The notes under the pieces were generated by a model. It had not been told where the DNA came from and did not search any database. It saw only the letters and a program-made list of their open reading frames with translations. Made by a program: the position numbers and the translations under genes. From contig NC_135804.1 in assembly GCF_964213995.1 (NCBI RefSeq), positions 59,458,001 to 59,522,000 on the forward strand: a stretch of 64,000 nucleotides of DNA. The letters run 5' to 3'. This DNA comes from Mustelus asterias (lineage: Eukaryota). Below are positions 15,607-64,000 of the stretch, piece by piece (the stretch's first letter is position 1; each line of letters starts with the position of its first letter).

Positions 15607-16860
15607 AAACATAACATAGAAACATAAAAAATAGAAGTAGGAGTAGGCCTTTCGACCCTTTGAGCCTGCTTCGCCATTCATTGTGATCATGGCTGATCAT
15701 CAAACTCAATATCCTGATCCCAACGTTCCTCGATGTCCCTTGATCCCTTTAGCCCCATGAGCTATATCTAATTTATTCTTGAAATTACACAAAGTTTTGG
15801 CCGCAACTACTTTCTGTGGCGGTGAATTCCACACGTTCACCACTCTCTGGATGAAGAAATTTCTCCTCACCTCAGTTTTAAATGGTTTACCCCTTATCCT
15901 CAAACTATGACCCTTATTTCTGGACTAACCCGCGATCGGGAACATTCTTTCTGAATGTACCCTGTCCGACCCATGATCGGGAACGTTCTTTCTGAATCTA
16001 CCCTGTCTAACTCAGTTAGAGCCTGAAAATTCAAAACTCTAATGAACACACTCATTGCCGACTTTGTCTCTCCTCACACGACAGACCTGCCTCCCAGGGA
16101 TGAGCCTGATAAGCCTTCGCTGTTATCCCTCTATAGCAAGGGCATCGCTCCTCAGATAAGGACACCGGAGCTGCACATAATACTCCAGATGTGACCTCAC
16201 CACGCCCCACGCAATTGCAGTAATAAATCTCTATTCACATACTCAAATCCTCTCGCTCTGAAGGCCAACATGCCATTTGACTTCTCTACTGCCTTATGTA
16301 CCTGCACGAGGACACCAAGATCTCGTTAATTTCACACATTAAAGTAACAATCGGTCTGCCTATTATGGCTACCAACGTGAACAATCCCACATTTATCCAC
16401 ATTGCACTGCATCTGCCATGTATATACTCACATACTCAGCCTGTCCAAATCACGCTGAAGCATCTCTGCTTCTCAACTCAACCTCCCACCCAACTTTGCA
16501 TCATCTACAAATTTGGAGATAATACATTTAGTGTCCTCTTCCAAATCAATAATATATAATATGAACAGTTGGAGTCCTAGCAGATATCCTTGCGGTGTCC
16601 CACTAGTCATTGCCTATCAATCAAAAAAGATCCATTAATGCCAAAGTTTTGCTTCCTAGCTGCTAACGAGCTTTCGATCTATCTCAGGAAATTACCTGTA
16701 ATCCCATGCGCTTTAACTTGATATAGTAATCTGCTATTTGAGACGCTGTCGAAAGCCTACTGATATTCTAAATGAACCACATCCACTGGTTCTCGTCGGT
16801 GAACTCTACGAGCTACATCCTCGAAGAATGCCAATTTCCCCTTTGTAAAGCCATGCTGCT
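15606..16860 (-). mobile_element. Decayed CR1 3' fragment with (TTCTATG)n-type tail and an internal 41-bp tandem duplication (~15934-16010)
   Basis: ORF 15706-15903 RGKPFKTEVRRNFFIQRVVNVWNS; tail microsatellite at 15606-15630. Confidence 0.85.
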
Positions 16861-16879
16861 TTAGCTGATTTAGGGACTG

Positions 16880-24124: not shown

Positions 24125-26705
24125 ATACGATGCAAGAAAGGGTGTTCCGAGGCATGGTAGATTGGCGAGACCATGCAGTCACGAGGACAGTGGATGAATG
24201 GACACCACTCGACAACCACCAGGCAGGAGTGTTCCCTTCCTGTCGGGGAACACTTCAGCAGTCGAGGGCATTCAGCTTCTGATCTTCAGGTAAGCGTTCT
24301 CCAAGGCGGCCTTCAAGACACATGTCAACGCACAATCGCTGAGCAGGAACTGATAGCCAAGTTTCGCACACATGAGGACGGCCTCAACCGGGATCTGGGT
24401 TCATGCCACACTAACTGTAAGCCTCCACGACGTGCCTGGACTTGCAAAATTTCGTTAACTGTCCTCGCTTGAAACAATTCACACCTCTTTAATCTCTACT
24501 AAACCCTCTCTCCACTCGCATTGTCTGCACCTGCTAAGACTCGCATTCCAACCATTATTTTGCAAATTGATTCTGTGTCTCTATGTGCCCTATTTGAGAA
24601 CCCAATCCTCCACTTGCCTGTTGAACGAGCAGGGCTCCGAATGCTCGTGCTACCAAATAGGCCTACTCTATCTATCCCCTTCATCATTTTATAAACCTCT
24701 TTTAAGTCTCCACTCAGCCTCCTCCGCTCCACAGAGAACAGCCCAAGTTCCCTCCACCTTTCCACATAAGACCTACCCTCCAAACCAGGCAGCATCCTGG
24801 TAAATCTCCTCTGCACTCTTTCCAGCGCTTCCACATCCTTCTTATATTGAGGTGACCAGAACTGCACACAATATTCCAAATGTGGTCTAACCATGGTCCT
24901 GTACAGTTGCAGCATAACCCCACGGCTCTTAAACTCCAACCCCCTGTTAATAAAAGCTGACACACTGTAGGCCTTCTTCACAGCTCTATCCACTTGAGTG
25001 ACAACCTTTAGAGATCTGTGGATATGGACCCCAAGATCTCTCTGTTCCTCCACAGTCTTCAGAACCCTACCTTTGACCCTGTAATCCACATTTAAATTAG
25101 TCCTACCAAAATGAATCGACTCACATTTATCAGGGTTAAACTCCATTTGCCATTTTTCAGCCCAGCTTTGCATCCTATCTATGTCTCTTTGCACCGACAA
25201 CAGCCCTCCACCTCATCCACTACTCCACCAATCTTGGTGTCATCAGCAAATTTACTGATCCACCCTTCAGCCCCCTCCTCTAAGTCATTAATAAAAATCA
25301 CAAAGAGCAGAGGACCAAGCACTGATCCCTGTGGCACTCAGCTAGCAACCTGCCTCCAATCCGAAAATTTTCCATCCACCACCACCCTCTGTCTTCGATC
25401 AGACAGCCAGTTACCTATCCAATCGGCCAACTTTCCCTCTATCCCACACCTCCTCACTTTCATCATAAGCCGACCATGGGGGACCTTATCAAACGCCTTA
25501 CTAAAATCCATGTATATGACATCAAGTGCCCTACCTTCATCAACACACTTGGTTACCTCCTCAAAAAATTCAATCAAATTTGCGAGGCACGACTTGCCCT
25601 TCACGAATCCGTGCTGACTATCCCGGATTAATCCGCATCTTTCTAAATGGTCATAAATCCCATCTCTAAGGACCTTTTCCATCAATTTACCAACCACTGA
25701 AGTCTGACTAACTGGTCTATAATTACCAGGGTCATTTCTATTCCCTTTCTTAAACAGAGGAACAACATTCGCCATTCTCCAGTCCTCTGGCACCATCCCC
25801 GTGAACAGTGAAGACCGAAAGATCAAAGCCAAAGGCTCTGCAATCTCATCCCTTGCCTCCCAAAGAATCCTAGGATACATTTCATCAGGCCCAGGGGACT
25901 TATCGACCTTCAGTTTATTCAAAACTGCCAGGACATCCTCCCTCCGAACATCTATTTCCTCCAGCCTATTAGCCTGTAACACCTTCTCTTCCTCAAAAAC
26001 ATGGCCCCTCTCCTTGGTGAACACTGAAGAAAAGTATTCATTCATCACCTCGCATATCTCTACTGACTCCATACACAAGTTCCCACTACTGTCCTTGACC
26101 GGCCCTAACCTCACCCTGGTCGTTCTTTTATTCCTCACGTAAGAGTAAAAAGCCTTGGGGTTTTCCTTGATCCGTCCCGCCAAGGACTTCTCATGTCCCC
26201 TCCGAGCTCTCCTAAGCCCCTTTTCCAGCTCATTCCTTGCTAACTTGTAACCCTCAATCGAGCCATCTGAACCTTGTTTCCTCATCCCGACATAAGCTTC
26301 CCTCTACTTTTCACAAGACATTCCACCTCTTTCATGAACCATGGTTCCCTCACTCGGCCATTTCCTCCCTGCCTGACAGGGACGTACCTATCAAGGACAC
26401 CCAGTATTTGTTCCTTGAAAAAGTTCCACTTTTCATTAGTTCCTTTCTCTGACAGTTCTGTTCCCAACTTATGCCCCTAATTCTTGCCTAATCGCATCAT
26501 AATTACCTCTCCCCCAATTGTAAACCTTGCCCTGCCGTACGGCCCTATCCCTCTCCATTGCAATGACAAAAGATACCGAATTGTGGTCAATATCTCCAAA
26601 GTGCTCTCCCACAACCAAATCTAACACTTGGCCCGGTTCGTTTCCCAGTACCAAATCCAATGTGGCTTGTTGGACTTTAACCTGGTGTTGTGAGACTTTT
26701 GACTG
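24125..26705 (+). mobile_element. Penelope-like element 3' part (GIY-YIG plus pLTR), split by a CR1 fragment
   Basis: CKKGCSEAW*IGETMQSRGQWMNGH...VGEHFSSRGHSASDLQVSVLQGG...EQELIAKFRTHEDGLNRDLG. The pLTR stops at ...CTACCAAATA (24659) and resumes TGTTGGACTTTAACCTGGTGTTGTGAGAC at ~26668. Confidence 0.85.
24664..26667 (-). mobile_element. CR1 ORF2 internal fragment lacking both 5' end and 3' tail
   Basis: ORFs 26469-26762, 25338-26285 (PGPDEMYPRIL, GNYRPVS.TSVVGK, DFSKAFDKVPH) and 24499-25200. Confidence 0.92.
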
Positions 26706-27744
26706 TTTTAATTCCATGAAGGTGTTATTTGATACTTTTCGCCATATAAACCTCTGAAGCACTTATGTCATGCAATTCAGGTTTCTGCAGCATCCGCAGT
26801 TTGAAATGGTCCTGTACTGGTGGCCCTGTCTTCATTAGTGACTTTCCTGAATCGTGGCATTCTCTCCCTAACTCATTCCGCCTGCGTAATGTAGAGCTCC
26901 AAGCTAAGGAAACAAGAAACTATCTAACTTTAATCAGGCTGCACCAGCACTGATACTCGAGAAATTGTAACAGTTGTTATGCAAGGCTAGCTCGTTTTCA
27001 GGCTGTTGCACTCAACAGATAAACGTATTCTGCTGTAGCAGAGATGAGCGAAAGAGCCATGTTCCATAATTAGCTTTCGAAACCCACGCGTCCGTATCAA
27101 TATTTAGCAACAGGTGTTAGTAATAGCAGAACAAACCCACCAGCACTTCAGCTTATTGTTTCAATGTGTTGACATTTCCATTGCTGTTCATGAATCCCTA
27201 CTTTGAATGTTAAAAATATTGCTGATCCGAGGAAGGTATCATAGACAGGTTTCATTGTTCACAGCCAACGTTGCGGTGGAGCGAGCACGTCAGGCTCCTG
27301 GGATTGTTCCAGAGTAAAACATTAATCTGGGCACTACTGATGATCAATTTGAGGGTTTTCACTCCCAGTGTACATTGCTGTTTCTTTCTAGATCAATACT
27401 AATCTAGAAATCTGCCTGAAGACAGAAAGACAACATATGCTCCCACTTGCATTCCAAGTTGGACACTTTGTCAATAAGCATTCACAGCCACTTATAATTG
27501 CCATGTACGTTCGAGTCACCATAATTCCTTTTTTTATCTGTTTGCGTATAACCTTTTCAGAACATCTTTAGAATAACCATTAGTGTGTTTCTTAAAGGGA
27601 ATGCAAATTTCTCAAAAGAGTTATTTTATGTTCGTTCATTTATGTAGTGGGAAATATATTTTAGCGTATTATTAATCCCAAGTCCCATTTTATGGAGAGA
27701 TCGGGCAGGAAGGCCGATGCCCAGTGAACTAGGAATGCAGGAAT

Positions 27745-28789: not shown

Positions 28790-31389
28790 AACAAAGAACA
28801 AAGAACAGTACAGCACAGGAAACAGGCCCTTCGGCCCTCCAAGCCTGTGCCGCTCCTTGGTCCAACTAGACCAATCGTTTGTATCCCTCCATTCCCAGGT
28901 TGCTCATGTGACGATCCAGGTAAGTCTTAAACGATGTCAGCGTGCCTGCCTCCACCAACCTACTTGACAGCGCATTCCAGGCCCGCACCACCATCTGTGT
29001 AAAAAACATCCCTCTAATATCTGAGTTATACTTCGCCCCTCTCACCTTCAGCCCGTGACCCCTCGTGAACGTCACTTCTGATCTGGGAAAAAGCTTCCCA
29101 CCGTTCACCCTATTTATCCCCTTCATAATCTTGTACACCTCTATTAGATCTCCCCTCATTCTCCGTCTTTCCCGGGAGAACAACCCCAGTTTACCCAATC
29201 TCTCCTCATAGCTAAGACCCTCCATACCAGGCAACATCCTGGTAAACCTTCTCTGCACTCTCTCTAACGCCTCCACGTCCTTCTGGTAGTGCGGCGACCA
29301 GAACTGGACGCAGTCCTCCAAATGTGGCCGAACCAGCGTTCTATACAGCTGCATCATCAGACTCCAGCTTTTATACTCTATACCCCGTCCTATAAAGGCA
29401 AGCATACCATATGCCTTCTTCACCACCTTCTCCATCTGTGTTGCCACCTTCAAGGATTTGTGGACTTGCACACCTAGGTCCCTCTGTGTTTCTATACTCC
29501 TGATGACTCTGCCATTTATTGTATAACTCCTCCCTACATTATTTCTTCCAAAATGCATCACTTCGCATTTATCCGGATTAAACTTCATCTGCCACCTCTC
29601 CGCCCAATTTTCCAGCCTATCTATATCCTGCTGTATTGCCCGACAATGCTCTTCGCTATCCGCAAGTCGAGCCATCTTCGTGTCATCTGCAAACTTGCTG
29701 ATTACACCAGTTACACCTTCTTCCAAATCATTTATATATATCACGAATAGCAGAGGTCCCAGTACAGAGCCCTGTGGAACACCACTGGTCACAGACCTCC
29801 AGCCGGAAAAAGACCCTTCGACCACTACCCTCTGTTTCCTATGGCCAAGCCAGTTCTCCACCCATCTAGCCACTTCTCCTTGTATCCCATGAGCCTTAAC
29901 CTTCTTAACCAACCTGCCATTGGGACTTTGTCAAATGCCTTACTGAAGTCCATATAGACGACATCCACGGCCCTGCCTTCATCAACCATTTTTGTCACTT
30001 CCTCAAAAAACCCCACCAAATTTGTAAGGCACGACCTCCCTCTTACAAAACCATGCTGTCTGTCACTAATGAGATTGTTCCGTTCTAAATGCACATACAT
30101 CCTTTCTCTAAGAATCCTCCCCAACAACTTCCCTACCACGGACGTCAAGCTCACCAACCTATAATTTCCTGGGTTATCCCTGCTACCCTTCTTATACAAC
30201 GGGACCACTTTCGCTATCCTCCAATCCTCAGGGACCTCACGCGTGTCCAAAGAAGCGACAAAGATTTCCGTCAGAGGCCCAGCAATTTCATCTCTCGTCT
30301 CCCTGAGCAGTCCAGGATAGATGCCATCAGGCCCTGGGGCTTTGTCAGTTTTAATGTTCCCTAAAAAACCTAACACTTCCTCTCTTGTAATGGAGATTTT
30401 CTCTAACGGGTCAACACCTCCCTCCGAGACACTCCCGGTTAACACGCCCCTCTCCTTCGTGAATACCGATGCAAAGTATTCATTTAGGATCGCCCCTATT
30501 CCCTTGGGTTCTAAGCATAATTCCCCTCCTTTGTCCCTGAGAGGTCCGATTTTCTCCCTGACAACTCTTTTGTTCCTAACGTATGAATAGAATGCCTTAG
30601 GATTCTCCTTAATCCTGCTTGCCAAGAACATCTCGTGACCTCTTTTTGCCCTTCTAACTCCTCGTTTGATTTCTTTCCTACTCTCTCTGTATTCCTCCAG
30701 AGCTCCATCTGTTTTCAGTTGCCTGGACTTAACGTACGCCTCCCTTTTCATTTTAATCAGATCCTCAATTTCCCTGGTTATCCACGGCTCTCGAATCCTA
30801 CCTTTCCTATCTTTCCTTTTTACAGGCACATGCCTATCCTGCAGCCTTATCAATAGTTCCTTAAAAGACTCCCACATGCCAGACGCGGACTTACCCTCGA
30901 ACATCCTCTCCCAATCAACATCCACCAATTCCTGCCTAATCCGGCTATAGTTAGCCTTCCCCCAATTTAGCACCCTGCCCGTAGGACAGCACTCATCCTT
31001 GTCCATTACTATCCTAAAGTTAACAGAGTTGTGGTCACTATTTGCCACATGTTCCCCTACTGAAACTTTGACGACCTGACCGGGCTCATTTCCCAGAACT
31101 AGGTCCAGTATAGCCCCCCCTCTAGTCGGGCTATCTACATACTGTTCCAAAGAACCTTCCAGTACGCATTTTACGAATTCCTCCCCGTCCGGACCCCCAG
31201 CTCTAAGCACTTTCCAGTCTGTGCCAGGGAAATTAAAGTCCCCCACTACAACAACCCTATTTTTGCTGCACCTATCCAGAATCTCCTGACATATCCTTTC
31301 CTCCACTTCCCGTGGGCTGTTGGGTGGTCTGTAGTGCACCCCCAGCATAGTGACTGTACCCTTCCTGTTTCTGAGTTCCAACCACAGCG
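28790..31389 (-). mobile_element. Young 5'-truncated CR1 (ORF2 endonuclease plus RT, single frameshift near 29920)
   Basis: ORFs 29825-31381 (YRPPN, GDFNFP, SDHN, DFSKAFDKVP) and 28866-29912 ([12 protein letters not shown]); (TTGTTCT)n tail; 4-bp TSD ATTG at 28786-28789 and 31390-31393. Confidence 0.95.
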
Positions 31390-31533
31390 ATTGGGAAAAA
31401 GATACAATTGTCTAAGGTCACGTTCCAAATGAATCAAGAACAGTTTCTTCCCTGCTGTCATCGGACCTTTGAATAGACCTATCGTATGTTAAGTTGATCT
31501 TTCTCAACAGCCTAGATAGGACTGTAACACTAC

Positions 31534-32135: not shown

Positions 32136-34248
32136 ACTACATTCTGCAGCGTTATGCTTGGTCTCTCTAGGAGCAACAAACAATACTTTTACTGTATACT
32201 AATATATGTGACAATAAAAGATCAATTTAAAAGCAGGGACTTAAAATGGAAGTCCCTTGCCTGTGTGTTTACAAATGGGAATGTGCTAGCTCTGTTCAAT
32301 GTTGTAATGGTTTTTGCAAAACTCTTCATCATTTCCATCTCCAAATTTACGATATGGGGGATACGGTAGGAGGATAAGAATCAGCTTAATAAGGAACATT
32401 CCTCACCAAGTGCCCAGAATGTGTTTAAAGTTGGCTTTTATGGCTGATTTTGGACAATATGCAGAAGCTGTAACTTCCGAGTCACTGAGGTCAGTGTTAC
32501 GGTATTTTAGCATATAGGAAAAATGCAATACGTGTGGGAGATATAAACTTAACTTTCCTAAATCTTGTGCAATCATTAGTAAAAAAAAGACAGACAATGT
32601 ATGCAGGAAGATGCCTTCAGTCATAGAAAGAAATTAATTGAATAATTAAATGTCAATAGACGAAACAGTTAGATTATTCCTGTTGTAACGATAGTGCAAT
32701 TCGGAAAGGTACAGCGACGTGTAAAATAGGACATCCGTTGCACGTGTGTGTCGCTATAATTATAGATTGAAACGCGATGTAAAATAACTGCTGCTATTGA
32801 ATACTAGATACGTCCACAGTGTGTTGCAATGTTGTTACATTTAGAACCGACATGTTCGCATTTCGAGAAGACCGAGTGAAATACGTCCACTGCCAAGTTC
32901 CAATCGTCAATACGCCTTGTCACTATTTAGCAATGTATAAGTGCAGCTCAAAACAGAAACTTACAAACCCCCAGCAATTGGTTTGCACGTTATCAGCTTA
33001 TCCAGATAAAGAGCCAACGCAATAATCTTTTACATACCATAAGTAGAGGTGCCACTATTTGGGTTAATTTAGCATCAAAATTATTTACACTACTTTGTTT
33101 CCGCATTGAGTCAACTGTTGTTTTTCAGGTCAGAAAATTACATGTTAGGACTTTATTGCAAAACGGAATTCGATGCATACCCATAAAGGAGAACTTTGAT
33201 TGCTCTGGAGAAAAAATCAGGAGTGGGAATAATTGGGCAATGCTGTCAAATTGCCAGCACGGATCAAACGGTCGCCTTCTCAGATGCAGGATTCCATAAT
33301 TCGACATGGTGTCATGTGGAAATGGATGTTTGTAAAGCAAGAAACAAACCCGAACCTACTTTCAGTAAGTTAATAGGGAAATCCAAGTATTCAGCTTCAC
33401 CCCTTTTCTATCAGGAGCATCAGCTGAGCTGGATGTGACGCACTGGCATGTACTCAACGTGATAACGGGACGTATGAATAATCTACACGCAGGTTTTTCT
33501 GCGTTACTGAACAAAGTGAACACTGATCGTTAATTTGTAAGAATTCGTAGAAAACCGATTTTTAAATTTTACTTTACTATACAGGTAATTAGGTACCACA
33601 AGACACAATGTACCGTTGTAGCCGAAGGAACATATTTGTCATTATTTAAAAAAATACTCATTGAACAATAATGTATGACAAGAAAGTTACTTTCTTCCTA
33701 AAGCAACGAAAATAAACTTCTTAAAATAACTGAGTAGCAAGTGACTACCATGTACTGCATTATCTGATAGACACGGTATCATACAGTACAAATACTCCTG
33801 CTCGCGGTAGGGCAAAGGGACGCGATCAGTGTCGACCAGAGAAGTGAATTCTGCGTCGAAATTCAATGGCTAATTGATTTTCGCCTCCATATAGCCAGTC
33901 GCTTTTACTCCATTTTGTTTTGCTCTCCGCAGTTCGGCATATTCAGTGCACCTTTCGTTGGCTTTGCCTTTGTCTGAGCCAGTCAACGCTACACGTGCGT
34001 ATATCAGGTCATTACCGACTTTCCTTTGTTGTGTCTGCAAGGTCAATGTTTGAAAACATTGTTTATTGGTTGCTTCGCAAGTCCGCTATTCAAAAGATTC
34101 ATCAGAAAGACACGCAGATCATCTTATAGACAGCATACGGGCAAAGTCATAAGAACATAAAAACATAAGAAATAGGAGCAGGAGTAGGCCATCTAGCCCC
34201 TCGAACCTGCCCCGCCATTCAATAAGATCATGGCTGATCTGACGTGGA

Positions 34249-37200
34249 TCAGTACCACTTACCCGCCTGATCCCCATAACCCTTAATTCCCTTACCGATC
34301 AGGAATCCATCCATCCGCGCTTTAAACATATTCAGCGAGGTAGCCTCCACCACCTCAGTGGGCAGAGAATTCCAGAGGTTCACCACCCTCTGGGAGAAGA
34401 AGTTCCTCCTCAACTCTGTCTCAAACCGACCCCCCTTTATTTTGAGGCTGTGTCCTCTAGTTTTAACTTCCTTACTAAGTGGAAAGAATCTCTCCGCCTC
34501 CACCCTATCCAGCCCCCGCATTATCTTATAAGTCTCCATAAGATCCCCCCTCATCCTTCTAAACTCCAACGAGTACAAACCCAATCTCCTCAGCCTCTCC
34601 TCATAATCCAAACCCCTCATCTCCGGTATCAGCCTGGTGAACCTTCTCTGCACTCCCTCCAATGCCAATATATCCTTCCTCATATAAGGGGACCAATACT
34701 GCACACAGTATTCCAGCTGCGGCCTCACCAATGCCCTGTACAGGTGCATCAAGACATCCCTGCTTTTATATTCTATCCCCTTCGCAATATAGTCAACATC
34801 CCATTTGCCTTCTTGATCACCTGTTGTACCTGCAGACTGGGCTTTTGCGTCTCATGCACAAGGACCCCCAGGTCCCTTTGCACGGTAGCATGTTTTAATT
34901 TGTTTCCATTGAGATAGTAATCCCATTTGTTATTATTTCCTCCAAAGTGTATAACCTCGCATTTCTCAACGTTATACTCCATTTGCCATATCCTCGCCCA
35001 CTCACTCAGCCTGTCCAAATCTCTCTGCAGATCTTCTCCGTCCTCCACACGATTCACTTTTCCACTTATCTTTGTGTCGTCTGCAAACTTCGTTACCCTA
35101 CACTCCGTCCCCTCCTCCAGATCATCTATATAAATGGTAAACAGTTGCGGCCCGAGTACCGATCCCTGCGGCACGCCACTAGTTACCTTCCTCCAACCGG
35201 AAAAACACCCATTTATTCCGACTCTTTGCTTCCTGTCGGATAGCCAGTCCCCAATCCACTTTAACACACTACCCCCAACTCCGTGTGCCCTAATCTTCTT
35301 CAGCAGCCTTTTATGGGGCACCTTATCAAACGCCTTTTGGAAATCCAAAAACACCGCATCCACCGATTCTCCTCCATCAACCGCCCTAGTCACATCTTCA
35401 TAAAAATCCAACATGTTCGTCAAGCACGACTTTCCCCTCATGAATCCATGCTGCGTCTGATTGATCGAACCATTTCTATCCAGATGCCCTGCTATCTCCT
35501 CTTTAATAATGGATTCCAGCATTTTCCCTACTACAGACGTTAAGCTGACCGGCCTATAGTTACCCGCCTTTTGTCTCCTTCCTTTTTTAAACAGCGGCGT
35601 AACATTAGCCGTTTTCCAATCAACCGGCACTACCCCAGAATGCAACGAGTTTTGATAAATAATCACTAACGCATCCACTATTACCTCTGACATTTCTTTC
35701 AATACCCTGGGATGCATTCCATCCGGATCCGGGGACTTATCCACCTTCAGTCCCATTAGTCTACCCAGCACTGCCTCTCTGGTAACATTAATCGTATTAA
35801 GTATTTCTCCTGCTGCCAACCCTCTATCGTTAATATTTGGCAAACTATTTGTGTCCTCCACCGTGAAGACCGACACAAAAAACTTATTTAAAGACTCAGC
35901 CGTATCCTCATTTCCCACTATTAACTCCCCCCTCTCGTCCTCCAAGGGTCCAACATTCACTCTAGCCACTCTATTCCTTTTTATATATTTGTAAAAACTT
36001 TTACTATCATTTTTTATATTAATTGCTAGCCTAGCTTCATAGTCTATCCTTCCTTTCTTTATCGCTTTCTTAGTCTCTCTTTGTTGTTTCTTAAATTTTT
36101 CCCAATCACTTGTTTCTCCACTATTTTTGGCCACTCTGTACGCAGCTGTTTTTATTTTAATACTCTCCTTTATTTCCTTCGTTATCCACGGCTGGTTCTC
36201 CCTTTTCTTACAATCCTTGTTTTTTGCTGGAATATATTTTTGCTGAGAACTGAAAAGGATCTCCTTAAAAATCCTCCACTGTTCCTCAGCTATCCTACCT
36301 GCCAGCCTGCTCTCCCAGTCTACCTTAGCCAATTCATCCCTCATCCTATCATATTTCCCTCTGTTCAAACAGAGGACACTGGTTTGGGACCAAACTTTCT
36401 CCTCTTCCATCTGAATCAGAAATTCGACCATATTGTGGTCACTAGACCCAAGAGGATCCTTCACAATAAGATCCTTAATTCTACCTACCTCGTTACACAA
36501 TACCAGATCCAAAATAGCTCGTTCCCTCGTCGGTTCCGTAACATGCTGTTCAACGAAACTATCCCGACAGCATTCTAAGAACTCTTCCTCCATTCCACCC
36601 TTACTGACTTGAGTCTGCCAGTCAATGTCCATGTTGAAGTCCCCCATGATTATTGCCGTTCCGTTTTTACACGCATCCCTTATCTGCTTGTTTATAGCCC
36701 TCCCTACCTCAACATTATTATTTGGGGGCCTATATACCACACCTACTAGTGTCTTTCTCCCTCTACTATTCCTCATCTCTACCCATAATGATTCCACGTT
36801 TTGTTCCTCAGAGCCTATGTCATCCCTCAGTACTACCCTGATATTATCTCTTATTAATAGCGCGACCCCACCACCTTTTCCTTCCTGTCTATTCTTCCTA
36901 AACGCCTGATACCCCTGGATATTCATCTCCCAGTCCTGGTCACCTTTCAGCCACGTTTCTGTAATGGCCACTAGATCGTACCCACTTGTGCTGATTTGCA
37001 CCATCAACTCATTTACCTTGTTCCGAATGCTTCGTGCATTCAGGCAAAGTGTCCTTATTCCAGCTTTTATCTGGACCCGCTTTGATGAGTCGCGAACACC
37101 CTCTCCCTCTACTCCCTTATCTAAATTACCGCCTTCATTCACTTGCACCCTCTCCTCTACCATTAATTTTGTAATTCCCCTTACCCCTGCATCCTCCCCC

Positions 37201-37253
37201 CCATCAATTAGTTCCTTGATCCTAGTCAACTCTTCTAGCTCCCCTCCCCCCAA
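34249..37253 (-). CDS. CR1 ORF2p (APE endonuclease plus reverse transcriptase) with one 1-nt deletion near 34790
   Basis: [41 protein letters not shown]. The 826-aa and 167-aa ORFs join as ML(x)YIAKGIEYK if one base is restored. Confidence 0.92.
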
Positions 37254-37258
37254 CCTAT

Positions 37259-38197
37259 CTAGTTTAAATTCTCCCCAGTAGCCTTAGCCAACCTACCGGC
37301 CAGGATATTGGTCCCCGTGTGATTCAAGTTCCACCCGTTTTTTGTATACAGATCACCCCTGCCCCTAAAGAGGTCCCAATGGTCCAGGAACCTGAATCCC
37401 TGCCCCCTGCACCAGTCCCTCAGCCACACATTCATCCTCCACCTCACTCCATTCCTGCCCTTACCTTCCCGTGGCACAGGCAGTAATCCTGAGATTACTA
37501 CCTTTGCTTTCCTCTTTCTCAGCTGTCTCCCTAATTCCCTGTACTCCCTTTTCATGACCCCTTCTCCCTTCCTACCCACATCAGCGGTACCAATATGTAC
37601 CGCTACCTCAGGCTCCTCTCCCTCCCACCTCAGGATTTCCGGGACGCGACTAGTGACATCCTGGATCCCGGCCCCAGGGAGGCAGACCACCATGCGAGAC
37701 TCCCGCCTGCCTCCGCAGAAACGCCTGTCTGTCCCCTTCACCATCGAGTCCCCGATTAATACCGCCTTCCTCCTCTTTTCCTTAGCCCTCTGAGTTACAG
37801 GGCTGGACTCCACTGCGGAGACATGGCCACTGCTGCTTCCCCCAGGCGGGCTGTCCCCCCCAGCAGTACTCAAGCAGGAGTACTTGTTGTGTAGGGGCAA
37901 ATCCACTGGGGTGCTCTCAACCACCCTAGCCTTACCCTTCCTGGCCGTCACCCACTTGGCCTCCTCCCGTGGCCCTGGTGTGACCACCTGATGATAGCTC
38001 TTGTCTATCACCTCCTCATTCTCCCTCATCAGCCTAAGATCCTCGAGCTGCAGTTCCAGCTCCCTAACACGGTCCCTCAGGAACCGCAGCTCGACACACC
38101 CCTCACAGATGTGGATGTCCGGGAGGCCAGATGCCTCCAGGACCTCCCACATCCTACAGTGGGAACAGCACACTGGTTTCACACTCATACTGGACAC
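37259..38197 (-). CDS. CR1 ORF1p: zinc finger/leucine zipper plus SGNH esterase-like domain (312 aa)
   Basis: CSHC..HICEGC, LRDRVRELELQLEDL, LIGDSMV, VCLPGA, VHIGTAD, ISGLLP; uninterrupted. Confidence 0.93.
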   Translation of the reverse strand: MSSMSVKPVCCSHCRMWEVLEASGLPDIHICEGCVELRFLRDRVRELELQLEDLRLMRENEEVIDKSYHQVVTPGPREEAKWVTARKGKARVVESTPVDLPLHNKYSCLSTAGGDSPPGGSSSGHVSAVESSPVTQRAKEKRRKAVLIGDSMVKGTDRRFCGGRRESRMVVCLPGAGIQDVTSRVPEILRWEGEEPEVAVHIGTADVGRKGEGVMKREYRELGRQLRKRKAKVVISGLLPVPREGKGRNGVRWRMNVWLRDWCRGQGFRFLDHWDLFRGRGDLYTKNGWNLNHTGTNILAGRLAKATGENLN

Positions 38198-38362
38198 TTT
38201 ATGTCAAGTAAGACAGTGAAAAGTTAATAAGAGTGTAAGGAAACAAAAACTCACCCCTGCTCGTCCAAGCCCTGTGAGCCAAAGCCCTGACAGCTCACTC
38301 AACTTCCCACTCACTCTGCTGCCCGCTACGATGCTGCCCGCTGTATACTTTGGTGCACTTTT

Positions 38363-38704
38363 AAACCCTCCAAAAACTTCCCCAGGCCTCTGCTGGCCCG
38401 ACTTCCGGTTTTGAAAAAAACCTCCGATTTTAAACCCAAAATTAACTGAAAAAATAAATAATTAATTACAGTCAGAAAACCCAGTCTCTTACCCTCAGCC
38501 TGCTCCTGGGAACAATGAAGCTGAACCTCCAAGGTAAGCCCTTTTGAAACCCTCCAAAAACTTCCCCAGGCCCCTCCTGGCCCGACTTCCGGTTTTGAAA
38601 AAAACCTCCGATTTTAAACCCAAAATTAACTGAAAAAATAAATAATTAATTACAGTCAGAAAACCCAGTCTCTTACCCTCAGCCTGCTCCTGGGAACAAT
38701 GAAG
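38363..38704 (-). promoter_or_regulatory. CR1 5'UTR tandem monomers (184-bp period), putative internal promoter
   Basis: Near-identical blocks start at 38363 and 38547; each has CCGGAAGT (ETS consensus) on the element strand. Confidence 0.75.
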
Positions 38705-41850: not shown

Positions 41851-42024
41851 GGCTGGCTATGTAAATCGATTTCAACACATTGCATTAAATTCAGTGTAAA
41901 GGCACTTTAAAGTTGAAATTTCCCGTGACATTTCCGTGATTATTAATATGCATAAAACTTACGAAAAATTTCACTATGAATTCTACTATAGCTGGCTTTC
42001 CTTTTAGAACAGTTTTTCCCCTAC

Positions 42025-42336
42025 CTCGGTTCGGTTTAGGAATCGTGTACGCCACAATAGCCGGAGTCTTGAGGGCGACATGAGATACCCGGCATGTATA
42101 ATTGCCGTCTTTCGGTACAGGCTGAATCTCAACCAAAGTGCTGGAAACTTCATACAGTCCCTCTCTGTTCTGCACTTTACTGGTGTGTATTCCTGATGCA
42201 GTTTCGACGCCATTTTTATACCAAGTAAGGGTGAAATTTTCCGGATAAAATGCAGCCGTTTTACAAACGAGGGTCAGAGGCGCAGTCGAATTCCCTTCAG
42301 TTGTCCTGGAGACAAGATTCAGTGGGGTTGGGGCCG
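42025..42336 (-). CDS. Gene B exon 3, Ig C1-set domain
   Basis: AAPTPL..TLVCKTAAFYPENFTLTWYKNG..GLYEVSS..YTCRVSHVAL; 312 nt as in gene A; canonical AG/GT. Confidence 0.95.
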
Positions 42337-42784
42337 CTGCGGAGCAGAAAATGAACAACGTACTGTGCACGGCTTGGAGAAATTAAATATACTTTTGACG
42401 TTCGGTTAATATTCCTACTCACTGGCAATTCCTATTTCCTGTATTTGAATATTACACACAAGATCAGTGTAGATCTAATCTATATAAAGTCCGGCATTCG
42501 ATCAATTTCAATAATTTTTGAATTCCTTGTCGGACAAGGTGAAGTGATTTGCTAATCAACGTTCTGTTTAAATCGCCCAGAGAATTTAATCTTGATGAGA
42601 CAGTCGTCTCGCTGAGTTGTTACGTGTTTTATGTGCAACGACATGACAGAGTGACGAATAATATTCATATTCTTGATGATGAAATGAGCGTTTTAATGCT
42701 CCTTTAACGCCGCAGCTTGACATTTGATTAAACAAATAACTTTCAGTTGAATCTGCCGAAGTTTCACCAACACAGCCTCTCTGT

Positions 42785-51813: not shown

Positions 51814-54037
51814 TGAAGAAGTGATTTAATTATTCATTTATTCATTTAAGGATATTCCTTGTATATTTCGCGGGCTTTTTTCAGGGTTTTGAATTGAGGA
51901 AGTGAGGTCAGCTGAAGGGGATTCTGGGAGGTTGAGTCTTAGTATAAAAGGCAGTTACCTGGGGGTTCGACCTCTTTGTTTGACTGGAGTGAGACTGGGG
52001 GAGAGAGTCTTAGCAGGAGTGCTGAGAGTAAGCAAAGAAGTGATTTAATTATTCATTTATTCATTTAAGGGTATTCCTTGTATATTTCGCGGGCTTTTTT
52101 CAGGGTTTGAATTGAGGAAGTGAGGTCAGCTGAAGGGGATTCTGGGAGGTTGAGTCTTAGTATAAAAGGCAGTTACCTGGGGTGTTCGCCTGCAGCATAA
52201 AAAGCCGGCTGCACTATACAGCGGGCAGCGTCGGGAGCGGGCAGTGGAGTGAGTGGGAAGCAGAGTGTGAACTATAAGGGCTTTGGCTCACAGGGCTTAG
52301 GCTGAAAGGGCGAGGCAAGGCTAGTTATTTTTTATCCAACCCTATAAAGGACAAGGGCAGGTATGAGTGATCGGCCAGTTCAGTGCTTCCGATGTGGGAT
52401 GTGGGAGTTCCTGCAAACACCTAGCTTCCCAGAGGTTCACATATGTGCCAGGTGCGTGGAACTGCAGCTCTTGAGGGACCGTGTCATGGAACTGGAGCTG
52501 CAGATCGCTGACCTTAGTCTAGTCAGGCAAAATGGGAGAACAATTGACAGGAGTTATAGGCAACTAGTTATACCGGGGCAAAGGGCGGAAGACACGTGGG
52601 TCACAGTTAGGAGGAGTAAAGGGCAGAAGGGTAAAGTACCAGGGAGTACTCCAGTGGTGGTCTCTCAAAATAGGAAGGGCTTGGTGACAGGTGTGAGAGG
52701 AGAGGGGAGTGAACAGTTAGAAGAGGGGTCACCTGTGGTTGTCCCACTCCAAAACAGGTATATTGTTTTGGATAGTGTGGAGGAGTGTGCCTCTCCAGTG
52801 GGAAGACACAGTGACCAGGTCACTGGCACACAGTCAGGCTCTGTGGCCCGGCAAGGGAAGAGAGGGGTTAGGAGAGCGATAGTGGTGGGGGATGCATCAG
52901 TTAGAGGCACAGACAGGCGATTCTGTGGGTGCGAACGGGACTCCAGGATGGTAGTCTGCCTACCTGGTGCTGGGGTCACGGATGTCTCCGAGCGGATAGG
53001 AGGCATATTAAAAGGGGAAGATAAAGAAACGGAGGTCATTATACACATTGGTGGAAATGACGTAGATAGGAAGAGTAGGGGGATCCTAAGAGAGCAATTC
53101 AGGGAGTTGGAAAATAGGTTAAAAAGTAGGGTCACTAGGGTGGCCATCTCTGGGCTGCTCCCAATGCCTCGTGCCAGTGAGGCTAAGAATAGGGAGTTGG
53201 TACAAATGAATGCCTGGCTAAAGGACTGGTCCAGGAGGGAGGGCTTCATTTTCCTAGATCAATGGGAAGTTTTCAGGAGTGGATGGCACCTGTACAAGAG
53301 GGAGGGGTCACAACTAAGTTGGAAGGGTACAAATATCCTGGCTGGGAGCTTTGCTAGTGCAGTTCAGGGGGGTTTAAACTAGCATGGCAGGGGGGTGGGG
53401 ATCAAAATATTAGTTCTATAAGTGTGGAGGCTGGGGACGAGCTTGGGGCTGGGACAAGGCTGGCAAAGAAGAAGAGCACTCTGGGGGAGGACGACCTCAC
53501 TGGGCCTGGAGGTCTGGAGTGCTTATACTTCAATGCAAGGAGCGTAGCAGGCTTCATTCTATGATCATCTTGCTGGTGCCAGTACAGAGCGAGACTGCGG
53601 ATAGTTGGGAACCTGTCTCGGGGGCAGGGAATTCAGATGGTGTTCGTAAAGCAGAAGTGGAAATGAATAGGGTTGGGAAGCATTTTCTGATCAGGGCCAG
53701 TGTGATCTCCTGGACTCGTTTCGATTGCCACAGGGGGTCGGAGAGGAATTTCCCAGATTTTTTTCCCCCATATTGGCCCTGGGGTTTTCACTTTGGGTTT
53801 TCGCCTCTCCCTGGAGATCACATGGTCTGGAATGGGGGGGTGGGGGTGAGTTAATAGGTTGTGATGAAGAAAGCATCGTAGCTGTGAGGGACAGCTCGGT
53901 GGATAGGATATTAGGATGTAGATAGGCTGGAAAATTGGGCGGGGATCCTGGATTCAGGATTCAATCCTGGACCGGGGAGCGGCGCGGGCTTGGAGGGCCG
54001 AAGGGCCTGTTCCTGTGCTGTATTGTTCTTAAAAAAA
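51814..54037 (+). mobile_element. Internally deleted ORF1-only CR1 (~2.2 kb)
   Basis: 5'UTR tandem repeat (219-bp period, 51816/52035), intact ORF1, ~57 codons of the ORF2 frame, then the 3'UTR cassette and tail; TSD AATTC at 51809-51813 and 54038-54042. Confidence 0.9.
52363..53382 (+). CDS. CR1 ORF1p (zinc finger/leucine zipper plus SGNH esterase-like domain, 339 aa)
   Basis: CFRC..HICARC, VVGDASV, VCLPGA, HIGGND; clearly homologous to 37259-38197. Confidence 0.93.
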   Translation: MSDRPVQCFRCGMWEFLQTPSFPEVHICARCVELQLLRDRVMELELQIADLSLVRQNGRTIDRSYRQLVIPGQRAEDTWVTVRRSKGQKGKVPGSTPVVVSQNRKGLVTGVRGEGSEQLEEGSPVVVPLQNRYIVLDSVEECASPVGRHSDQVTGTQSGSVARQGKRGVRRAIVVGDASVRGTDRRFCGCERDSRMVVCLPGAGVTDVSERIGGILKGEDKETEVIIHIGGNDVDRKSRGILREQFRELENRLKSRVTRVAISGLLPMPRASEAKNRELVQMNAWLKDWSRREGFIFLDQWEVFRSGWHLYKREGSQLSWKGTNILAGSFASAVQGGLN

Positions 54038-58419: not shown

Positions 58420-59990
58420 TCCTTTCATAAGAGGACCAAAACTGTTCACAGTATTCCCGTTGTCGTCTGCCTGGTGCTTTGTATAGTTTTAGCAAGTCTT
58501 CCCTATTTCATGCACAATTCCATTTGAAATAAAGAGTAACAATCCATTTGCCTTCCCTATTACTTCCTGAACATTCAGGCTCGCTTTTTGTGATTTTTGC
58601 CCGAGGACACCCAAATCCCTCTGGGTTGCAGCTTCCTGCAGTCTTTCTCCATTTAAACAATATTCGGCTCCTTTATTCTTCCTATTGACGTGCATAAATT
58701 AACATCCTCCTACATTGCATTCCAAGTTTTTGCCCACTCACTTAAGCTATCTGTATCCTCTGTAGACTATTTGTGTCATCCTCATCACTTGCCTTTCCAC
58801 CTATTTTGTGTTATTAGCAAATTTGGTAATAGTACAATTACTTTGCTTATCCACGTCACTGATATATATTGTAAATAATTGTGGCCCCAGCACTGATCCC
58901 TGTGACACTCCACCAGTTATAGGTTGCCATCCTGAAAATTTCCCTCTTATTCCAAATCACTATCTTCCTGTAGGTAGCCAATCCTCTATCCATGCTCATA
59001 CACTTCCCCCGACACAATGGACTCCTATCATATGAAGTAGCCTTTTGTGTAGTATCTTATCGAATGCTTTTTGTAAATTCAAGTATACTACATCTCATGG
59101 TTCCTCTTTATTAATCCTGCTCATTATCACCTCAAAGAATTGTAATTAATTTTGCAGCAATATTTTCCCCTCATGAAGTCATAACTGACTCTGCTTTGTT
59201 ATGTCATGCATCCCTAAACCCTCTGCTAAAACATATTTTATAATAGGCTCTAACATTGTCCCAATAACAAATATTAAGCTAACTATCTTATACTCACCTG
59301 ATTTTCTCCCCCTTCCTTTTTGAATGGTGTTACATTGGCAGTTTTTCGATCCTCAGGGAATTTTCCAGAACGGAAGGATCTTGGAAACTTACAACCAATG
59401 CACTTACTGTCTCTGTCGCTACTTCCTTTAATATCCGAGGATGCAACCAATCAGGTCCAGAGACTTATCGGCCTTGAGCCGCATTAGTTTACCGAGTACT
59501 TTGTTCTCGAGTGCACCTTATTGTATTAATTCCTTCACCTCCTCCCCCACCCCAGCTCCCACCGTTTTTGCCCTTGATTATTTAGTATTTCTGAAGTGTT
59601 ATTAATGTTTTCCATCGTGAAGACAGACTCAAAGTATTTATTTAACTCCTCCACCATTTTCTGGTTTCCCATTTTTACTCCCCCATGTTCAACTAAGGGG
59701 TTTATGGTCCCGTCAACCTCTCCTGTCCTTTTCATAATTTTAAAGAAACTCTTACTGTTGTTTTTACATTACCCTCTCGTTTAATTCATGGTTTATCTTC
59801 TCCCTCTTCATTATTTTGGTAATCTTTTGCTGAATTTTAAATCATTCGCAATCCTCTGGTTTATCATTAATCTGTGCCACATAGTGTGTTCAGTTCATTT
59901 AGTGTTATAAAATCTGTATATGTATTTAATAACCATGGTTGAATTATCCCCTTCCTAGAAATCATCATCCACACAAGGATATTTATTTGT
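58420..59990 (-). mobile_element. Decayed CR1 ORF2 fragment
   Basis: ORFs 58489-58695 (QRDLGVL) and 59535-59735 (EELNKYFESVFTME). Confidence 0.85.
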
Positions 59991-60499: not shown

Positions 60500-61990
60500 A
60501 TCGTGGAACCACGGAATTGTTATGGTACGAAAAGAGGCCATTTGGCCCATCGTATCTGCGTCAGCTCTGCAAATGACCATCATGCTTGAGTGCAATTCAC
60601 CTGCATTTCCCCCCTCGCTCTGCATTTTTTTCTATTCAAATAATCACCTAATGCTCTTTCGAATGCCTCGGTTGAATCGACATCCACCTCACTTCCAGGC
60701 AGCGCATTCCAGACCAGAAGCATTCATTGTCTGTAGAGATATTTTCTCACATCACATTTGGTTCTTTTGAAAATTACTTTAAAACTGTGCTCTCTCGTTA
60801 CTGGTCCTTTTACGAACGGAAACAGTTTGGCTCTATTTACACTGCACAGCCCTCTCATGATTTTGAACATCTCTATCAAATTTCCTCTGAGCCGCATTCT
60901 CTCCAAGGAGAACAATCGTAACCGCTCACATCTGTCCTCATAACTGAAGTTTCTCATCCCTTCATCCAATCTTGCAAACCTCTTCTGCACTCTCCAATGC
61001 GTTCACACTGTTCCCATAACGTGGCACCCAGAACTGTATATAATTTTCCAGCTGAGGTCCAATTAGTGTCAGTTTAACGTCCTTGCGTATGTACTCCAAG
61101 CACGTATTAATTGAGTTCAGAATACTATATGCTTTAGTAACCGTTCTCTCCACCTTTCCTTACGATCTATTCACATATGCACCCAGGTCGCTCTGCTCTT
61201 GCATCCCTTTAAGAATTTTACCCATTGTTTCATATTGTCTCTCCATGCTCGTCCAACAAAAATGCATCACCTCACATTTCTCCATATTTAATGTTATCTG
61301 CCACCTATCTTCCCATTCCAGCAACTTATCTGAAATTCTCCACTACTCTTTGATTTGATTTGATTTATTATTGTCACATCTATTAGCAGACGGTGAATAG
61401 TATTGTTTCTTGCGCGCTGTACAGACAGAGAATACCGTTTATCGAGAAGGAAGCGAAAGAGTGCAAAATGTCGTGTTACAGTCGTAGCTAGGGTGTAGAG
61501 AAAGATCAACTTAATGCAAGGTAGGTCCATTCAAAAGTCCGATGGCAGCAGGGAAGAAGCTGTTTTTGAGTCGGTTGGTACGTGACCTCAGACTTTTATA
61601 TATTTTTCCCGACGGAAGAAGGTGGAAGAGAGAATGTCCAGAGTGCGTGGGGTCCTTAATTATGCTGGCTGCTTTACGGAGGCAGCGGGAAGCGTAGACA
61701 GGGTGTACTCATCACAGTTTACGATAATTATGGTTTTGTGTCATCCGCAAACTTTGAAATTGCCCCGTGCACACCAAGATCTGGATAATTAATATTTCTC
61801 AGAAAATGCAAGGGTCTCAATACCGATCCCTGGGGAACACCACTACAAATCTTTCTTCAGTCCAAAAAATATCTATCAACAATTATATTTTGCTTCCTAT
61901 TATACAACCAATTTTGTACAGCCGCTATAACTTTCCCTTTTATTTCATGAGCTATAACTTTTCCCACAAGTATGTTGTATGGCACTGCAT
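60500..61990 (-). mobile_element. Decayed CR1 3' part interrupted by a Rex/Babar 3' end (61350-61700, minus, (TTTGA)n tail on the + strand)
   Basis: ORFs 60724-60990 and 60962-61153. The insert is the reverse-complement homologue of ~28700-28785, 31390-31530 and 32140-32222. Confidence 0.8.
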
Positions 61991-64000
61991 CACAAACCCG
62001 CCTTTACCACCCTCCGAGGCAGTGCATTCCAGGCCGTCACCACCCTCTGGGTAAAAAAGGGCTTTCCTCACATCCCCCCTAAATCTCCTGCCCCTCAACC
62101 TGAACGTATGTCCTCTTGTGACTGTCCCTTCAACTAACAGGAGCAGCTGCTCCCTACCCATTCTGTCCATGCCCTTCATTATCCTGTACACCTCAATCAT
62201 GTCGCCCCTCAGTCATCTCTGCTCCAACGAAAACAATCCAAGCCTATCCAACCTCCCTTCATAACTTAAATGTTCCATTTCAGGCAGCATCCTGGTGAAT
62301 CTCCTCTGCACCCTCTCGAGTGCAATCACAATCTTCCTATAATGTGGTGACAGAACTGCACACAATACTCCAGCTGTGGTCTCACCAAAATTCTATACAA
62401 CTCCAACATTACTTTCCTGCTTTTGCAATCTATGCCTCGATTGATAAAGGCAAGTGTACCGTATGCATTTTTCACCACCACCTGCCCTTCCGACTCCAGA
62501 GATCTGTGGATAAAGACGCCAAGGTCCCTTCGTTCCACAGAACTTCCTAGCGTCGATCATTCATTGAATGCTTCCTTATCAAATTACTCTTTCGAACGTG
62601 TATCCCCTCACACTATTCAGGGTTAAATTCCATCTGCCACTGAGCTGCCTATTTGATAATTCCATTGTGGTGATATAAACAGGGCCAAGTTTTAAGGCTG
62701 ATAAAATTGGATATCCTAAATTAAAGAATTGGCCATATTCAAATCAAACGCAGTCAAACCTCAGGCAGGCCAATTATACAAACACACAAACGTGTCTGGG
62801 CCTGACCCATCAACCACCCATCAAAGGTCGTTATACTCTACTTGAGACTTAGCAGGAGATCGTGGCACCTCATTGAAATGCATCGGCCTATTGTTAGAAG
62901 TGCAGATCGAACCAGACTTTCTGTCACCAAGAGTTCCTGTAGATACCTTATATGATAACAAGTGGAGATGGACATCTGGGGGGGCGGACCCTGGTGTCCT
63001 GTCAGGCAGACATCAAGAAACCCACTGGGTTTTGGAACCCTATCCTGGGACCTCATTGGCCGGAAGCCAGAGAAGTTTCTGGAAAGGCAAGCAGGCTGGG
63101 GGATAAAGGGACACATTTTCAGACACACTGCAGCGAAGACTCGACAGGGGAGACGGCCGTGACCATTCGGAAGACTGACCTGAGAAGGAAGGCAAGAAGA
63201 AGCGACCATCGAGACTCACCTTCGTGATGACGGACCAGAGGGACTTAGAGAATCGGACCAGCAGTTCAACCAAACCATCTTTACGGGTAGTATACTTGAA
63301 TCTGCTGGGTTATCCTCTTGTTTTATGTGGGTAATTTAAGGATTAATAGTGTTATTATTGATAAACTTGTTGAACCTTTACTTGTGTTTGTCCTTTGTCC
63401 ATCTTGCAAATAAGGGCACCGGGGTAAAACCTTGGAGTAAGTAAACTAGTTGAAAGTATCTGAGAATTAACAGGTACAACACCATCTATATCTTCTTATA
63501 GGTAGTTAGCCTTGCTGCTAACCACCTGGCAAATCTTTGTGTCATCTGCAAACTTATTAATGCTTCCCCACGAAGTCATCAATATCATTTCCATAAAGGA
63601 CAGATAATATAGGACCCAACACGGATCCCTGTGGTATGCAAATCGACTATGGCTTCCAGTCACGAAAGCAGCCTTCTGCCATCTCTCTCTCGTACAATAG
63701 TACCAATTCTGAATCCACTTTATCAAATTGTCCTCTTCCCATGTGCATTTACCTTCTTTACAAGTCTCCTACTTGGAACATTATCAAAGGCTTTGCTGAA
63801 AACCATTTTAACTACGTCGACTGCACTACCCACGTACACACACCTGGTGACCGCCTCAAAAAATTCAATCAAATTTGTTCGGCATGATCCCCCCCTGATG
63901 AAGCAACAATGACTATCCAAGTGGGTATAGATTCTCTCCATCAGAATTTTCTCCAAAGGTTTCCCTGCCAATGACGTAAGACTCACTGACCTGTACTTCT
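61990..64000 (-). mobile_element. Decayed CR1 ORF2 fragment running off the window end, split by a solo LTR
   Basis: ORFs 61952-62200, 62326-62538, 63496-63726 (NKFADDTKI) and 63723-63986 (FSKAFDNVP). Confidence 0.88.
62666..63481. mobile_element. 816-bp solo LTR
   Basis: Starts TGTGGT, ends ACAACA; 4-bp TSD CCAT at 62662-62665 and 63482-63485; cleanly interrupts a CR1; no recognisable coding content. Confidence 0.8.

Follow-up and report, generated by a model that had tools for sequence, protein, structure and literature searches.

How bicistronic long interspersed nuclear elements (LINEs) translate their second open reading frame (ORF2) has been worked out in few cases, L1 and SART1 among them. 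Both are described as using stop-coupled reinitiation (PMC2881922, PMC3708506), and the sections of PMC2881922 consulted, which give this route for both elements, contain no mention of a frameshift. Nor is a -1 frameshift a new idea for LINEs, to go by a review's statement that TRE5-A and TRE3-A of Dictyostelium require one for ORF2 (PMC5911963). Here we compare with these systems the ORF1/ORF2 junction of an esterase-type CR1 LINE in Mustelus asterias, found in a 64,000-nt stretch ("the window") of contig NC_135804.1, positions 59,458,001 to 59,522,000 (RefSeq assembly GCF_964213995.1). We put a probability of roughly 0.78 on the reading that ribosomes slip by -1 at a U_UUA_AAC heptamer closing ORF1, giving a fusion of ORF1, the linker, the endonuclease (EN) and the reverse transcriptase (RT) at low frequency beside abundant ORF1 protein (ORF1p).

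On the review's account, the Dictyostelium elements resemble this one in being two-ORF, APE-type non-LTR elements with a -1 frameshift for ORF2; they differ in clade and in ORF1, and the CR1 site, kept across vertebrate CR1, consists of U_UUA_AAC, an immediate stop and a G motif. Coronavirus 1a/1b and retroviral gag-pol, as described in the sections of the literature consulted, share with it an X_XXY_YYZ heptamer, an overlapping -1 ORF without a start of its own, and a structural protein placed before the polymerase. Unlike them, the CR1 site lies in a non-LTR host element and is followed after the spacer by an unpaired-looking G tract, with no pseudoknot or hairpin found. In Rous sarcoma virus, too, a stop follows immediately on the slip site. 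In the portion of PMC5009743 consulted, U_UUA_AAC itself is listed with the heptamers at which mammalian ribosomes are most prone to shift. The junction of the window copy is made up as follows.

37262..37268, minus strand: slippery heptamer U_UUA_AAC, in X_XXY_YYZ phase
37259..37261, minus strand: ORF1 stop directly 3' of the heptamer, TAG in this copy
37065..37268, minus strand: stop-free -1 frame linker from heptamer to endonuclease, 197 nt when counted from the end of the last ORF1 codon
37242..37251, minus strand: conserved G-rich motif GGGGG-R-N-GG(G), a candidate stimulator, at offsets +10 to +19 counted from the stop's first base

An earlier, sequence-only reading of this stretch had proposed a gag-pol-like ORF1-ORF2 fusion made by -1 frameshifting, with a G-quadruplex (G4) as stimulator, and its description of the letters is borne out. 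ORF1 ends AAT TTA AAC TAG, placing TTTAAAC at 37268-37262 (minus strand) in phase T TTA AAC and TAG at 37261-37259. ORF2 occupies the -1 frame, which opens at 37283, five codons before the heptamer, and continues by way of FKLDRLGGG to APE and RT; its first in-frame AUG (37163) comes 35 codons past the heptamer's first codon. A 6-nt spacer, TAG ATA, then leads to GG TT GGGGGG A GGGG A. Because TTTAAAC occurs 26 times in the window (and any XXX-YYY-Z heptamer 531 times, both strands counted), the heptamer of a single copy is not beyond chance, and the case rests on conservation.

Copies from the same genome were gathered by sequence searches and coordinate look-ups, and the end of ORF1 was located with a profile of alignment A1. 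From 228 records, 7 without an ORF1 end and 19 sequence-identical ones were removed, and 198 own copies were kept; these are the top matches to chosen queries, not a random sample. TTTAAAC stands at the ORF1 end in 185 of the 198, and the 13 others include four one-base profile offsets. A second set holds one natural representative per ORF1 lineage (n = 13, or 9 lineages once five close pairs are merged), with a mean amino acid identity of 0.57 and a third-position identity of 0.52.

All 13 of these representatives carry U_UUA_AAC followed by a stop. The sequence-only reading had held that free synonymous variation of the Leu-Asn codons would speak against it, and there is none: the terminal Leu is TTA and the terminal Asn AAC in 13/13, and the codon before them (column 309, third from last) encodes N, T, A, R, G or D, yet its third base is T in 13/13. 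Seven other invariant Leu columns are spread over three to five codons each, and a control residue, Asn255, is AAT in 7 and AAC in 5. AAT at the terminal Asn would preserve the residues in both frames, yet 0/13 representatives use it. Third bases are invariant in 7 of 156 other columns, which by our own arithmetic, with relatedness included in the base rate, puts three consecutive ones at the stop at about 1e-4. The heptamer is in phase and kept at synonymous sites, as is looked for in programmed -1 frameshifting, and these codon comparisons indicate that the constraint is one acting on the RNA, matching X_XXY_YYZ exactly. The stop varies in type among 14 family representatives (TAG 8, TAA 4, TGA 2) so that what is retained is a stop and no splice AG; the TAG as a splice acceptor fails in the TAA and TGA families. 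In four public runs (contigs, close relatives), 37259-37268 has no listed variant, while 37256-57 and 37269-74 vary. A test of the residue before the terminal Leu-Asn (LN), which is E, Q, K, M or W in 1/84, was discarded as confounded by helix periodicity (5/84 at -6 and -7).

Such conservation could also arise if the heptamer, stop and G block formed an RNA element of another function (protein binding, packaging, termination control), or if Leu-Asn were constrained as protein, with ORF2 reached by an unrelated route. A protein constraint, however, cannot fix codons; moreover, 4c1b, a solved LINE esterase, can be aligned only as far as position 306 of the 311 in the profile, and LN is missing from the ends of other distant esterases. 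Another role for the RNA would fit the failure to find a classical stimulator downstream, as well as the block common to families F1 and F2, whose linkers and ORF2s differ, so that the block travels with ORF1 as a unit. Under that explanation, it would be coincidence that open linkers of 11 lengths all keep to the -1 register, and we regard this whole class of explanation as quite improbable.

The register of ORF2 also speaks for slippage. Among 188 copies with an endonuclease match, the endonuclease lies in frame -1 in 149, +1 in 22 and 0 in 17. Modal linkers in 11 families measure 98, 113, 122, 128, 131, 158, 173, 197, 209, 266 and 341 nt and have one common register; a variable ORF2 frame, the other sign that the sequence-only reading had named against itself, is not what is seen, the modal linker being -1 in every family with several scorable copies. 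Modal copies, picked for this count among the -1 copies, are open in -1 in 25/25, 8/10, 21/21, 13/13, 4/4, 4/6, 2/2, 1/3, 5/6, 4/4 and 5/6, and the other frames mostly contain stops; upstream of the heptamer, the -1 frame closes 1 or 5 codons away. No stop interrupts the stretch that leads to the first Met or EN, shuffles being open with P 0.006-0.57 per family. The EN NARS motif has an Asn that is catalytic in L1 EN; in 7/11 families no Met comes before this Asn, the first one following it or being absent through the second, ETW motif. Because this stretch is stop-free and most families lack a usable start, the linker is probably read from the junction onward: the downstream ORF is in -1, open through the site, and needs no start of its own.

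Those same 7 families stand in the way of ORF2 being initiated at an internal AUG of its own, whether by leaky scanning, an internal ribosome entry site, or a spliced or subgenomic RNA. The window's family does have an AUG 35 codons in, ahead of EN, as do F3, F6a and F7 likewise. Against this route stands also the AG after the heptamer, missing in the TAA and TGA families. This route is strongly disfavoured, and we give it hardly any weight. In F7, a G run lies between the heptamer and the first AUG, its in-frame length, G10, being modal in 81/104 copies. Frame selection on this run was considered and dropped, as G13, seemingly too common among the first 26 copies, was no longer so in 104/108 matched copies. 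A very young CR1 family (loci L118-L125, L188-L207 and L228-L307; median 0 differences over 666 nt) has at least 129 near-identical ORF1 matches and an unstable G10 run at the junction, of 9-16 G.

Reinitiation coupled to termination is a serious rival. Ribosomes would restart on a -1 codon overlapping the ORF1 stop, UAAUG-like or AUG-independent, and make a separate ORF2 protein (ORF2p), with the G motif acting as a SART1-like downstream structure. L1 ORF2 is translated by AUG-independent reinitiation. SART1 and mammalian L1 are, like CR1, bicistronic LINE RNAs, and the SART1 stop-start sets the same -1 register; UAAUG coupling, a point absent from the sequence-only reading, would yield that register here and would also account for the open linker. 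A few CR1 lineages have it: in F8 (loci L128 and L214-L216) a UAAUG stop-start overlaps the heptamer's stop. Loci L053/L054 carry an AUG in frame, 5 nt past the first base of the stop. By eye, the F8 junction matches a row labelled ScyCan_CR1-1a in the part of the PMC13343379 supplement consulted. Loci L214-L216 have TTTAAAT and no endonuclease match, and are part of a set repeated on small contigs. Of the 14 representatives, 1 has AUG as the codon at the stop overlap, 3 have a near-cognate codon and 10 a non-cognate one. The AUG overlapping or beside the stop that typifies SART1 is thus found in 1/14 and is absent from the window element; the 13 without it, and the invariant heptamer ahead of the stop, set CR1 apart from SART1 and L1. 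Reinitiation also leaves the invariant X_XXY_YYZ unexplained, including the wobble T of the variable codon, and likewise the QGN and SKN termini described below. We consider it unlikely, though less so than the other alternatives; in the UAAUG lineages it may operate beside frameshifting.

Downstream, counting from the stop's first base, G is invariant at +10, +12, +13, +14, +17 and +18 (14/14 family representatives); the motif starts 10 nt past the heptamer, with 7 nt between it and the stop. Because +10 and +13 fall on third codon positions of the -1 frame, where G makes up 29% of the remaining linker, it is probably as RNA that the G motif is read. As a candidate stimulator, the G tract of the sequence-only reading stands in its conserved part, from 10 nt after the heptamer; the GG with which its proposed G-quadruplex begins varies.

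The junction extends beyond this genome. Among the JGI loci, L049 and L053-L056 have the heptamer and stop (ORF1 about 33-37% identical where measured), L052 has the heptamer followed by TCA, L051 has a decayed form, and L048, L050 and L057 are without the junction. Published consensus rows were searched by motif in the PMC13343379 supplement, over the first 400 characters of each row, so that the counts have no denominator; the rows carry small deletions and were left out of frame scoring. TTTAAAC plus a stop gave 23 matches, of which 18 are ORF1 ends by eye and 5 are not. CR1 rows with this ORF1 end are AllMis, CroPor, PogVit, AquCat, AmiCal, LatCha, CalMil, PriPec, SquAca, ScyCan and HypSab, and so include crocodilians, a lizard, a frog, bowfin and coelacanth; an AldAff row with the same end is labelled Crack, not CR1. 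Six synonymous spellings followed by TAG gave 11 matches in these row starts, 0 of them in CR1 rows, and matches in the part of the PMC4316615 supplement consulted are ORF2 3' ends. The sequence-only reading had proposed a comparison of this junction across vertebrates. Its heptamer and stop are there in CR1 rows of several; its G-tract spacing is found by eye in some rows (AllMis_CR1-1b, -6a, CalMil_CR1-1b, PriPec_CR1-7, ScyCan_CR1-1a) and is not seen in the AldAff and SquAca_CR1-17a rows.

At the protein level, ORF1 ends in LN in coelacanth, tree frog, wall lizard and sturgeon, and 137 distinct ORF1 C-termini comprise LN in 84, QGN in 9 (distant ones) and SKN in 2. QGN and SKN are what CAG GGA AAC (G_GGA_AAC) and TCA AAA AAC (A_AAA_AAC) would encode, and 16/53 non-LN termini fit some heptamer, as against a background of 6.6%, with kinship uncorrected. 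Two CR1 ORF1 proteins of vertebrate type, P0023 and P0066, carry the species labels Pseudomonas aeruginosa and Protopolystoma xenopodis, probably through host contamination. In two Hypanus sabinus gene models, P0045 and P0054, ORF1, FKL, linker and endonuclease lie in a single frame; these may be model artefacts or single-copy indels. A search for naturally fused ORF1-ORF2 proteins gave two matches; P0230 was rejected as a CR1 fusion, its esterase sitting after an RT ORF.

Several observations weigh against frameshifting. The stem-loop or pseudoknot 5-9 nt downstream that is looked for at such sites was not found; minimum free energy (MFE) z-scores run from -1.0 to +1.3 over 15 representatives with no shared fold, no dedicated pseudoknot predictor having been run. 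Nor is there a conserved G4: ViennaRNA predicts one in the MFE structure of 8/14 own representatives, a two-tier pattern occurs in 10/14 and a three-tier one in 3/14, and only two G runs are conserved, where G4-stimulated frameshifting calls for four and a stable intramolecular G4. A long-range helix with the CLPG codons shows no covariation (p 0.30). In the F7 run, non-modal G lengths are not enriched in frame (6/23, p 0.83), giving no extra sign of frame selection. Frame 0 or +1 is found in 39/188 copies, which we read as decay, although not shown copy by copy, and in-frame AUGs precede EN in 4/11 families, at unrelated positions. The representatives of the openness test were picked as open, and the families are not fully independent. 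Four copies have TTCAAAC and two TTTAAAT; single-codon columns occur elsewhere too, in 3/29 other invariant columns. UAAUG is present at the stop in lineage F8 and in the published shark consensuses ScyCan_CR1-1a, SquAca_CR1-17a and -6c, and the heptamer swaps behind QGN and SKN are inferred from protein.

Three candidate stimulators were rejected in this search: a local hairpin downstream of the heptamer, of which none was found; long-range pairing with the CLPG codons, which lie 423 nt upstream and rank with the best partners in several families but are weak in F6a, F6b, F7 and F12; and a G-quadruplex as general stimulator, not conserved, though G4Hunter places the site in the top 5% of +/-600 nt in 13/14 own representatives. 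The junction would seem to work as a Gag-Pol -1 site does, yet it does not pass the test of a folded stimulator. Of the earlier proposal, the gag-pol-like fusion has survived both of its sequence counter-signs; its G-quadruplex part is not supported.

The mechanism we favour would then run as follows. The majority of ribosomes would terminate at the ORF1 stop and release ORF1p, while a fraction probably slips by -1, with tRNA-Leu and tRNA-Asn re-pairing from UUA-AAC to UUU-AAA. Our best guess is that the pause comes from slow termination at the adjacent stop, from the G motif, or from both, and that the G tract, possibly protein-bound or intermolecular, aids it at the mRNA entry channel. The ratio of ORF1p to enzyme would be like that of Gag to Gag-Pol. 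A broader proposal, which we hold tentatively and at somewhat less than even odds, is that -1 frameshifting is ancestral and general for esterase-type CR1, cartilaginous fish and reptiles marking the span, with G_GGA_AAC and A_AAA_AAC taking the heptamer's place in more remote relatives, the stop plus an unstructured G tract as stimulator, and an esterase-endonuclease-RT fusion as product.

The element that carries the junction, and a second CR1 ORF1 in the window, are laid out as follows.

34148..38704 (ends approximate), minus strand: CR1 LINE copy of the esterase type, full-length; sister copies aligned by blastn give the 5' end, and the 3' end is by eye
38359..38704, minus strand: 5' untranslated region, two tandem units of about 180 nt
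37259..38188, minus strand: ORF1, 309 aa from the ATG at 38188, ending Leu-Asn-stop
34249..37268, minus strand: ORF2, APE endonuclease and RT, in the -1 frame, first AUG 37163, frame change near 34790
52363..53401 (ORF1 52363-53379), plus strand: second, divergent CR1 ORF1, aa identity 44-49%, heptamer at 53373-53379

By its domains, its 3' tail and a by-eye match of its junction to rows labelled CR1, the element is an esterase-type CR1 LINE. ORF1 has a Cys-rich N-terminus, a coiled-coil-like stretch (by eye) and an SGNH esterase (PF13472, E 3.7e-10; profile A1 versus 4c1b, E 1.1e-35); Pfam finds PF14529, PF03372 and PF00078 in ORF2; and the tail, read by eye, consists of short TTCTTATG-like repeats without poly-A. 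Canonical vertebrate CR1 has the same esterase ORF1, APE and RT in ORF2, and lack of poly-A, in the part of PMC13343379 consulted. The nearest named homologues are from rays and sharks. The copy is full-length, as the sequence-only reading had it, and is not intact, given the ORF2 frame change. Its two 5' units (38704-38359, minus strand), against three in loci L039 and L047, recall monomeric LINE promoters, and a possible 6-bp target-site duplication, TGACTT, flanks the element by eye (38708-38703 and 34149-34144, minus strand).

The ORF1 at 52363-53379, the sole other CR1 ORF1 in the window, has the same ending, closing GGT TTA AAC TAG with the same G motif, and its ORF2 stops soon after the start of the endonuclease. 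More 5'-truncated CR1-like ORF2 fragments lie at 2053-5536, 16248-16876, 24940-26720, 29382-31393, 58519-59765 and 61734-63995. An open frame at 41891-42382 (minus strand) resembles an immunoglobulin C1-set exon by eye and is possibly a piece of a host immune gene. Among the copies of this genome, the L001 family and L002-L016 have the ORF1 3' end, heptamer and G motif in common and unrelated linkers and ORF2s just past the G motif (37242), a pattern that suggests ORF1/ORF2 module exchange right after the signal; locus L013 appears chimeric.

Descriptions of the CR1 junction were reportedly given by Haas and by Kajikawa in 1997, and may have suggested frameshifting. A proposal of CR1 frameshifting was not found in the literature searched, as far as consulted, including PMC3708506, PMC3905857, PMC5006619, PMC4255032, PMC6609765 and PMC13343379; the search did not reach the original CR1 descriptions. 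The survey in PMC13343379 leaves ORF translation, overlap and start codons unmentioned in its main text, and frameshifting unmentioned in its supplement, in the parts consulted. Recoding in non-LTR elements is covered in PMC5009743 for HeT-A, TART and L1, and CR1 is unmentioned in the first 300,000 of its 449,034 characters; the shift in Drosophila HeT-A is within gag (PMC5009743). CR1 and L2 elements containing 2A also recode, by peptide-driven skipping in ORF2 N-termini and mostly in single-ORF elements, on the passages of PMC3708506 consulted.

CR1-group elements are the dominant retrotransposons in most vertebrates, according to the part of PMC13343379 consulted. As far as sequence can tell, the junction is real and strongly conserved. 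If the frameshift reading is true, the CR1 ORF2p would bear the membrane-binding esterase ORF1p at its N-terminus, offering a route to ribonucleoprotein assembly and cis preference; CR1 ORF2 annotations begun at the first Met would truncate the endonuclease, and engineered CR1 assays would need the junction retained. A -1 site without a folded stimulator would also be a new test case for the mechanism of frameshifting, and, should the broader proposal hold, the dominant vertebrate LINE would prove to be expressed in the manner of Gag and Gag-Pol, with a new kind of stimulator.
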